Positions 9,847 through 10,806 of a DNA stretch of 64,000 bases are shown here, in pieces. The stretch's first letter is position 1, and every line of letters begins with the position of its first letter. This DNA comes from Escherichia coli. Its GTDB lineage: Bacteria > Pseudomonadota > Gammaproteobacteria > Enterobacterales > Enterobacteriaceae. The stretch lies in the NCBI RefSeq assembly GCF_003334355.1, contig NZ_QOWP01000006.1; one strand, 5' to 3'. The translations under genes and the position numbers were made by a program. The notes beneath the pieces are model-generated. The model saw only the letters and a list, made by a program, of their open reading frames with translations, was not told the origin of the DNA and searched no databases.

Positions 9847-10806
9847 ATGAAGCCGGAAAACAAATTACCTGTTCTGGACCTTATTTCTGCTGGAATGAAG
9901 ACCGTTGTGAATACTCTTCAGCCGGATTTACCGCCCTGGCCCGCAACGGGAACGATTGCTGAGCAACGACAGTATTACACGCTTGAGCGCCGATTCTGGA
10001 ATGCGGGCGCTCCAGAAATGGCAACCAGAGCTTACATGGTTCCAACAAAATATGGGCAGGTGGAAACACGTCTCTTTTGTCCGCAGCCAGATAGCCCGGC
10101 GACGCTATTTTATTTGCATGGAGGCGGTTTTATTCTCGGCAATCTCGATACCCACGATCGCATCATGCGCCTGCTGGCAAGCTACAGCCAATGTACGGTG
10201 ATTGGTATTGATTACACCCTTTCACCTGAAGCGCGTTTTCCGCAAGCGATAGAGGAAATTGTGGCTGCTTGTTGTTATTTCCACCAGCAGGCGGAGGATT
10301 ATCAAATCAATATGTCCCGCATTGGCTTTGCCGGTGATTCCGCAGGTGCCATGCTGGCGCTCGCCAGTGCGTTGTGGTTGCGTGATAAACAGATCGATTG
10401 CGGTAAAGTTGCGGGCGTTTTGCTGTGGTATGGGCTTTACGGATTACGGGATTCCGTGACTCGTCGTCTGTTGGGCGGTGTCTGGGATGGCTTAACGCAA
10501 CAGGATTTACAGATGTATGAAGAGGCGTATTTAAGCAACGACGCGGACCGCGAGTCGCCGTATTACTGCCTGTTTAATAATGATCTCACTCGCGAAGTTC
10601 CGCCCTGTTTTATTGCCGGGGCGGAGTTCGATCCGCTGCTGGATGACAGCCGTCTGCTTTACCAGACGTTAGCGGCGCATCAGCAGCCCTGTGAGTTCAA
10701 ACTCTACCCAGGCACGCTGCACGCCTTTTTGCATTATTCACGGATGATGAAAACCGCCGACGAGGCTCTTCGCGACGGCGCTCAGTTCTTTACCGCTCAG
10801 CTTTAG
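9847..10806 (+). CDS. aes: Acetyl esterase Aes (alpha/beta hydrolase, HSL family)
   Basis: ORF 9847..10806(+), 319 aa; HGGG oxyanion motif ([10 protein letters not shown]) and GDSAG nucleophile motif ([11 protein letters not shown]). Confidence 0.93.

Follow-up and report, generated by a model that had tools for sequence, protein, structure and literature searches.

The tail-to-tail overlap of aes and hemH in Escherichia coli: a conserved stop-sharing junction and a hemH transcript that ends inside aes

The acetyl esterase gene aes and the ferrochelatase gene hemH of E. coli are transcribed towards each other and overlap at their stop codons, an arrangement that is real, conserved, ordinary and already known. 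Published data show that hemH transcription runs past its stop codon and that Rho stops it about 300 nt downstream, inside aes; we infer from the local sequence that the aes transcript probably ends at a hairpin followed by a T-run, or through Rho. Taken together, we consider the overlap quite probably neutral or close to it: a stable junction of shared stops at which transcripts end inside partner genes and carry complementary 3' UTRs. Positions below refer to the window, that is, the whole stretch of 64,000 nt that was analysed.

In the window, aes occupies 9847..10806 on the + strand (319 aa, ending in ...FFTAQL*) and hemH occupies 10803..11765 on the - strand (320 aa, ending in ...VAAYR*), with the ORF list and the RefSeq annotation in agreement on both. 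Direct reading of 10800-10809, gctTTAGcga, puts the aes stop codon, TAG, at 10804-10806 on the + strand, while the hemH stop codon, TAA, is read on the - strand from 10805 to 10803. These two stops thus have 2 nt in common and the coding intervals, stops included, overlap tail to tail by the 4 nt of TTAG (10803-10806; CTAA on the hemH strand). A preliminary description of this DNA had named the two genes, assigned them to these strands, proposed that the two stops share TTAG and concluded that no intergenic spacer separates them; sequence, ORF list and RefSeq annotation bear it out in each of these respects.

The same junction is annotated elsewhere. RefSeq places aes and hemH at identical coordinates in strain AR_0369 (NZ_CP027140.1, 850261 onward), and in K-12 MG1655 hemH (498055..499017) and aes (499014..499973) have the same 4-nt overlap. 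Both products are matched essentially from end to end by equivalog models: residues 1-319 of Aes align with NCBIfam NF007547, a 321-position model, at 629.7 bits, and residues 1-319 of HemH align with profile positions 1-320 of the 322 in TIGR00109 at 445.9 bits. The solved chain of E. coli Aes, 4KRX in the PDB, also has ...FFTAQL as its C-terminus. When complete E. coli genomes are searched with a 1-kb query spanning the junction, 5425 of the 5426 contain a match (AR_0369 with 100% identity), and a 35-nt stretch with the junction at its centre is present at 99% identity or more in 5126 of them.

Convergent overlaps of the stop-sharing kind have been catalogued as a class since the early 2000s. 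Any of four tetramers, CTAA, TTAA, CTAG or TTAG, allows two convergent genes to share their stops in this fashion (Lillo & Krakauer 2007, PMC2174442), and the same study counted 58 convergent overlaps in E. coli. The aes/hemH overlap has every defining feature of the class: two real genes lie tail to tail, they share TTAG, and the overlap is kept among orthologous pairs. We see no material difference between this pair and the other members of the class, of which it is one of about 58 in E. coli. Within the first 50 kb of the window, one of nine convergent pairs overlaps, and as a class the aes/hemH overlap is not statistically remarkable.

What the geometry does dictate is where the transcripts can end. 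Because there is no spacer, each mRNA must end inside the other gene, and each 3' UTR is therefore antisense to the partner's coding sequence. For convergent overlapping genes in general it has been pointed out that an intrinsic terminator must sit in the partner coding sequence, and such an embedded terminator was predicted for 23 of 116 convergently overlapping genes in E. coli (PMC2174442). That transcription from each gene enters the other, as the preliminary description had expected, is supported not only by geometry but also by two published data sets: hemH-aes is one of 165 convergent transcript overlaps that occur in no fewer than 50% of 58 MG1655 RNA-seq sets (ExcludonFinder, PMC12288877), and a Rho termination region has been mapped antisense to aes.

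This Rho region lies on the hemH-sense strand at MG1655 499332 (+) and is classed as antisense to aes, its Rho score being 4.07 with p = 6.2e-10 (Supp. file 2 of PMC7815308). Reads fall from 79 upstream to 24 downstream of 499332 without bicyclomycin, as against 422 upstream and 522 downstream with it (PMC7815308). Transferred to the window, the site corresponds to position ~10488, about 315 nt past the hemH stop and inside aes; note that the published coordinate is approximate, because it derives from 800-nt windows and processed 3' ends (PMC7815308). The composition of the RNA agrees with this placement. Between 10363 and 10562 (- strand), +240 to +440 past the hemH stop, hemH-sense RNA is C-rich and G-poor, with C/G ratios of 1.6-2.5, and the published Rho region falls within this stretch. 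Since the C-rich RNA lies past the stop codon, it is untranslated and usable for Rho loading. Given both the published bicyclomycin-sensitive read-through and the agreeing RNA composition, we conclude that hemH terminates by Rho within aes. In its sensitivity to bicyclomycin, its antisense position and the C-rich, G-poor RNA nearby, the site is like other Rho regions described by Adams et al. 2021 (PMC7815308); it differs in that the hemH 3' RNA is wholly antisense to a coding gene and not intergenic. The preliminary description had also stated that the two 3' ends lack a terminator. This holds for intergenic terminators, of which there are none, but not for the partner coding sequences, which contain termination signals: Rho-dependent ones for hemH, and a candidate hairpin with a T-run for aes.

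A second Rho region lies at the other end of hemH, at MG1655 498060 (+), which corresponds to window position ~11760 (-), 5 nt into the gene (score 4.02, p = 1e-17; PMC7815308, Supp. file 2). Bicyclomycin raises the reads downstream of it about 10-fold (PMC7815308), which suggests that transcription coming into hemH, either from the adk side or out of its own leader, is limited by Rho. The adk-hemH spacer itself differs between strains, being 131 nt long here (window 11766-11896) as against 235 nt in K-12 (L002:2321-2555). The roughly 104 extra nucleotides of K-12 comprise a G/C-rich, repeat-like segment (CCCTCGCCCCCTCGGGGAGAGGGTTAGGGTGAGGGG) and a hairpin, GGCCGGATATTCATTCGGCC, followed by TTTT, and they lie near a published Term-seq 3' end at 497939. 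The spacer of the present strain instead has an 11-bp hairpin (AGCAGATCTGC/GGCAGGTCTGCT) and no T-run.

Two further structures are predicted in hemH-sense RNA upstream of the Rho region. Hairpin B (10750..10779, - strand) is a GC-rich stem followed by UUUU, situated 24-53 nt past the hemH stop within the C-terminal codons of aes. Its folding energy is -17.6 kcal/mol on the hemH-sense strand vs -10.2 kcal/mol on the aes-sense strand, a stability equalled by 0.03% of synonymous recodings, and its pairing is lost outside Escherichia. We considered hairpin B as an intrinsic terminator of hemH and rejected it: in the presence of bicyclomycin reads go from 422 to 522 across +315, with no drop (PMC7815308), and there is therefore no efficient Rho-independent stop between the hemH stop codon and that point. 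At most, hairpin B is possibly a 3'-protective stem that would block exonucleases on the hemH mRNA. Hairpin D (10674..10725, - strand), an extended stem-loop 78-129 nt past the hemH stop, is predicted at -27.7 kcal/mol on the hemH-sense strand vs -18.0 kcal/mol on the aes-sense strand. Across the alignment 82% of cells are paired and five pairs show double changes, so that covariation is weak; at 8 pairs vs 5.2±1.2 in shuffled alignments (19/500) it is marginal.

For the aes transcript, the candidate end point is hairpin A (10839..10886, + strand), which may be an intrinsic terminator or simply a 3' stem-loop. Its predicted stem of 15 bp spans 10839-10876 and has CATATTTTTT behind it; the whole is located 33-80 nt past the aes stop and embedded in hemH codons 294-309. 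Hairpin A is the top match of our terminator pattern scan, which asks for five T or more in 8, as the tail CAUAUUUUUU has; the U6 starts 5 nt past the stem. For the 54-nt segment the folding energy is -20.7 kcal/mol in the aes sense vs -10.0 kcal/mol in the hemH sense, and 3.7% of synonymous recodings equal this stability. With its GC-cored stem, subsequent T-run and location no more than 80 nt past the aes stop, hairpin A may be compared with the embedded intrinsic terminators discussed above (PMC2174442); it is unlike them in that the U-run begins 5 nt past the stem and is not conserved beyond Escherichia, decaying to TTGCTT or TTTCTG in many Citrobacter. Across 30 genomes, 95% of cells are paired in hairpin A, with no double (compensatory) changes and no difference from shuffles. 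Given that the T-run is unconserved and compensatory changes are absent, conservation of the stem may merely reflect the HemH protein sequence. Hairpin A is degraded in most aes-less genera, yet intact in two aes-less Trabulsiella; a comparison of genomes with and without aes is confounded by phylogeny, and we discarded it as a test of the hairpin.

Published maps of transcript ends say little about aes. Neither hemH nor aes is named in the curated list of Term-seq 3' ends (PMC7815308), both are missing from TERMITe, and no aes transcription unit is reported by SMRT-Cappable-seq. The absence of aes from the Term-seq and SMRT-Cappable-seq data is probably due to weak expression under those conditions. 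Behind hairpin A, aes-sense RNA is C-rich and G-poor from 10887 to 11006 (+ strand; C/G 1.6-2.1, +81 to +200 past the aes stop), a possible Rho loading region for aes read-through. We found no published Rho region antisense to hemH in PMC7815308.

Relative to the coding strand, hairpins A, B and D gain 7-10 kcal/mol in stability on the strand that would place them in a 3' UTR, which raises the question of whether such structures are selected. Our synonymous-recoding test was calibrated on 925 windows from five genes, and the final ~130 nt of aes or hemH account for seven of the ten most extreme z-scores among these windows. The top z-score, -4.8, belongs to a segment at about 10897-10924 ('hairpin C'), which we left uninterpreted: UUUU lies inside the stem, stability is equal on both strands, and Citrobacter does not conserve the structure. 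Five other species show a small excess of antisense structure near the stops (mean z of -0.31 vs -0.01), partly mirrored on the sense strand, and the associated p-values are optimistic since they come from overlapping windows. Covariation was rejected as proof of function for all three hairpins, there being none for A, lost pairing for B and a marginal signal for D. Selection on the embedded hairpins is, from the sequence comparisons, possible but unproven.

The arrangement is best explained as an ordinary, conserved stop-sharing overlap. TTA, which is the hemH stop seen from the opposite strand, has a purine after it and so supplies the aes stop (TAG). The hemH RNA past its stop is untranslated and antisense to aes, and Rho acts on it about 300 nt downstream, where it is C-rich and G-poor. 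The aes RNA would end at hairpin A and its T-run, with the C-rich stretch behind as a possible Rho back-up. A promoter scan of 9400-12700 found no sigma-70-like sites where 3.0 were expected, and thus no sign of an internal antisense promoter.

How did such a junction come about, and how stable is it? We collected 45 species-representative loci through HemH, in addition to two E. coli loci (L001 and L002). With L001 and L002 counted, aes is convergent with hemH in 30 loci and intact in 28 of these. Among the 28 intact pairs, the gap between the coding sequences is -4 in 20 loci, -10 in three, -11 in one, 0 in one and +2 in two to three, and on the hemH strand the 20 loci with a gap of -4 read CTAA or TTAA. 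Escherichia, Citrobacter and Salmonella thus all keep the junction tight, between -11 and +2 nt and most commonly at -4. The -4 geometry recurs with three different C-termini of Aes (...AQL*, ...IKMLR* and ...INAAR*); the C-termini of Aes and HemH are both conserved in related species. In two Escherichia lineages aes has become a pseudogene. In E. albertii NBRC 107761 (L007) it has a frameshift and an 11-nt deletion near its 3' end. In Escherichia sp. E1V33 (L008) residues 84-256 are lost, TTAG has changed to TTGG, and hemH is two codons longer, ending in ...YRQS*.

In the genera that lack aes, represented by 17 loci, gsk directly follows hemH on the same strand. From the absence of aes and the adjacency of hemH and gsk in these 17 loci, aes looks to have been added between the two. 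Keeping in mind that this scenario is based on the pattern of presence and absence in 45 loci and not on a phylogenetic reconstruction, it was most likely in the Escherichia/Citrobacter/Salmonella lineage that aes took its place between hemH and gsk. The junction would then have stayed tight, probably since two genes that share a stop have reached a stable end state at no cost.

Two observations on the aes-less loci may be added. Their hemH-gsk spacer (L023-L046) is 65-150 nt long and contains a conserved palindrome around ...GGGGAATATGCTACTATTCTCCGC..., which could combine the roles of hemH terminator and gsk promoter region. One of them, L029 (CACSKA010000001.1), is labelled 'Chryseobacterium sp. 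18061' and has an enterobacterial hemH-gsk locus with a HemH 84% identical to that of E. coli. As it closely resembles L028 ('Citrobacter sp. 18056', from the same study), the assembly has probably been mislabelled or contaminated.

There are a number of scenarios in which the overlap would be more than a neutral end state. The most serious is that aes and hemH form a functional excludon: strong transcription of hemH, for example by OxyR upon exposure to H2O2, would drive polymerases and antisense RNA across aes and lower Aes, and vice versa, through transcriptional interference or cutting of the RNA duplex by RNase III. Interference had been raised by the preliminary description as a possibility. 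Several observations are in keeping with this idea. The pair is itself on the published MG1655 list of convergent excludons, which was drawn up from RNA-seq coverage (PMC12288877), hemH-sense RNA reaches at least 300 nt antisense into aes (PMC7815308), and hemH is induced by OxyR (PMC8115020). In addition, the tight junction is conserved across three genera, and there is a modest strand-asymmetric excess of RNA structure in the last 120 nt of aes and hemH. However, the defining outcome of an excludon is mutually exclusive expression, by interference or RNase III, whereas ExcludonFinder applies overlapping coverage as its only criterion and shows no reciprocal expression for this pair (PMC12288877); we found no report that either gene represses the other. 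Its distance of -4 nt also differs from that of E. coli excludons, which average 95 nt (PMC12288877). Junction geometry drifts between -11 and +2, several lineages have lost aes or carry it as a pseudogene with hemH unchanged, and the excess of structure, which is weak in species other than E. coli, is seen on the sense strand too. We therefore regard a functional excludon as rather unlikely. A more elaborate version, in which the last ~130 nt of each coding sequence would be doubly constrained, by the protein and by selected stem-loops at the partner's 3' end, hairpin A serving aes and hairpins B and D serving hemH, and in which antisense 3' UTRs would couple the two genes so that OxyR-driven induction of hemH lowers Aes, strikes us as improbable. 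It would fit the strand asymmetry of the hairpins, the clustering of extreme z-scores near the two stops and the weaker bias of like direction in five other species.

A second scenario involves collision. Here, converging polymerases paused at hairpins would stop each other and be released by trailing polymerases, leaving defined, slightly overlapping 3' ends with neither a classical intrinsic terminator nor Rho. The preprint bioRxiv 10.1101/2022.10.23.513370, citing Ju et al. 2019, proposes this model for many convergent E. coli pairs, and stable hairpins are indeed predicted on both sides of the aes/hemH junction. But the same preprint describes the class as Rho-independent, whereas read-through in the hemH direction is sensitive to bicyclomycin and hence Rho-dependent (PMC7815308). 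Moreover, collision is efficient only in highly expressed pairs according to the authors' own analysis, but SMRT-Cappable-seq did not detect aes as a transcription unit, and there is no intergenic element at aes/hemH. Bidirectional termination by collision is accordingly very unlikely to be what happens here. Finally, that the overlap is an artefact of annotation or sequencing, with one stop misplaced, which is the one finding that the preliminary description said would overturn it, can be dismissed: both stops are validated by the end-to-end matches to NF007547 and TIGR00109, the C-terminus of 4KRX, an identical junction in more than 5100 complete genomes and the conserved C-termini of both proteins.

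With the neutral stop-sharing overlap as the preferred reading, there is nothing new in the overlap itself, which is part of the standard K-12 annotation and features both in the published list of excludons and in the published table of Rho regions. What we add is the location of candidate 3'-end structures in the codons of the partner gene and the inferred insertion of aes between hemH and gsk. The value of the pair is modest, as a clean, conserved example of how transcripts end without intergenic DNA; a second use is in asking whether structures that terminate or stabilise transcripts can be written into the codons of a partner gene. Aes is a known inhibitor of MalT. If antisense coupling were functional after all, it would link the induction of heme synthesis under oxidative stress to Aes and MalT, and nothing points there yet.

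Some features elsewhere in the window deserve mention. An Rfam scan of 8000-13000 at E<=1 yielded no match at the aes/hemH junction; its sole match was naRNA4 (RF02564), a REP-type palindromic element at 8296-8373 on the - strand (74 bits), within the 132-nt spacer of the convergent genes ybaL and gsk. Further along, ybaE (42404-44104), encoding a regulator of the SgrR family, has an internal stop in this strain and is accordingly annotated as a pseudogene. The published list of E. coli excludons (PMC12288877) also includes two further convergent pairs from the window: pdeB/ybaA, separated by a 41-nt gap (window 32649-32691), and ybaZ, of the MGMT family, and ybaY, separated by a 30-nt gap (window 33734-33765).
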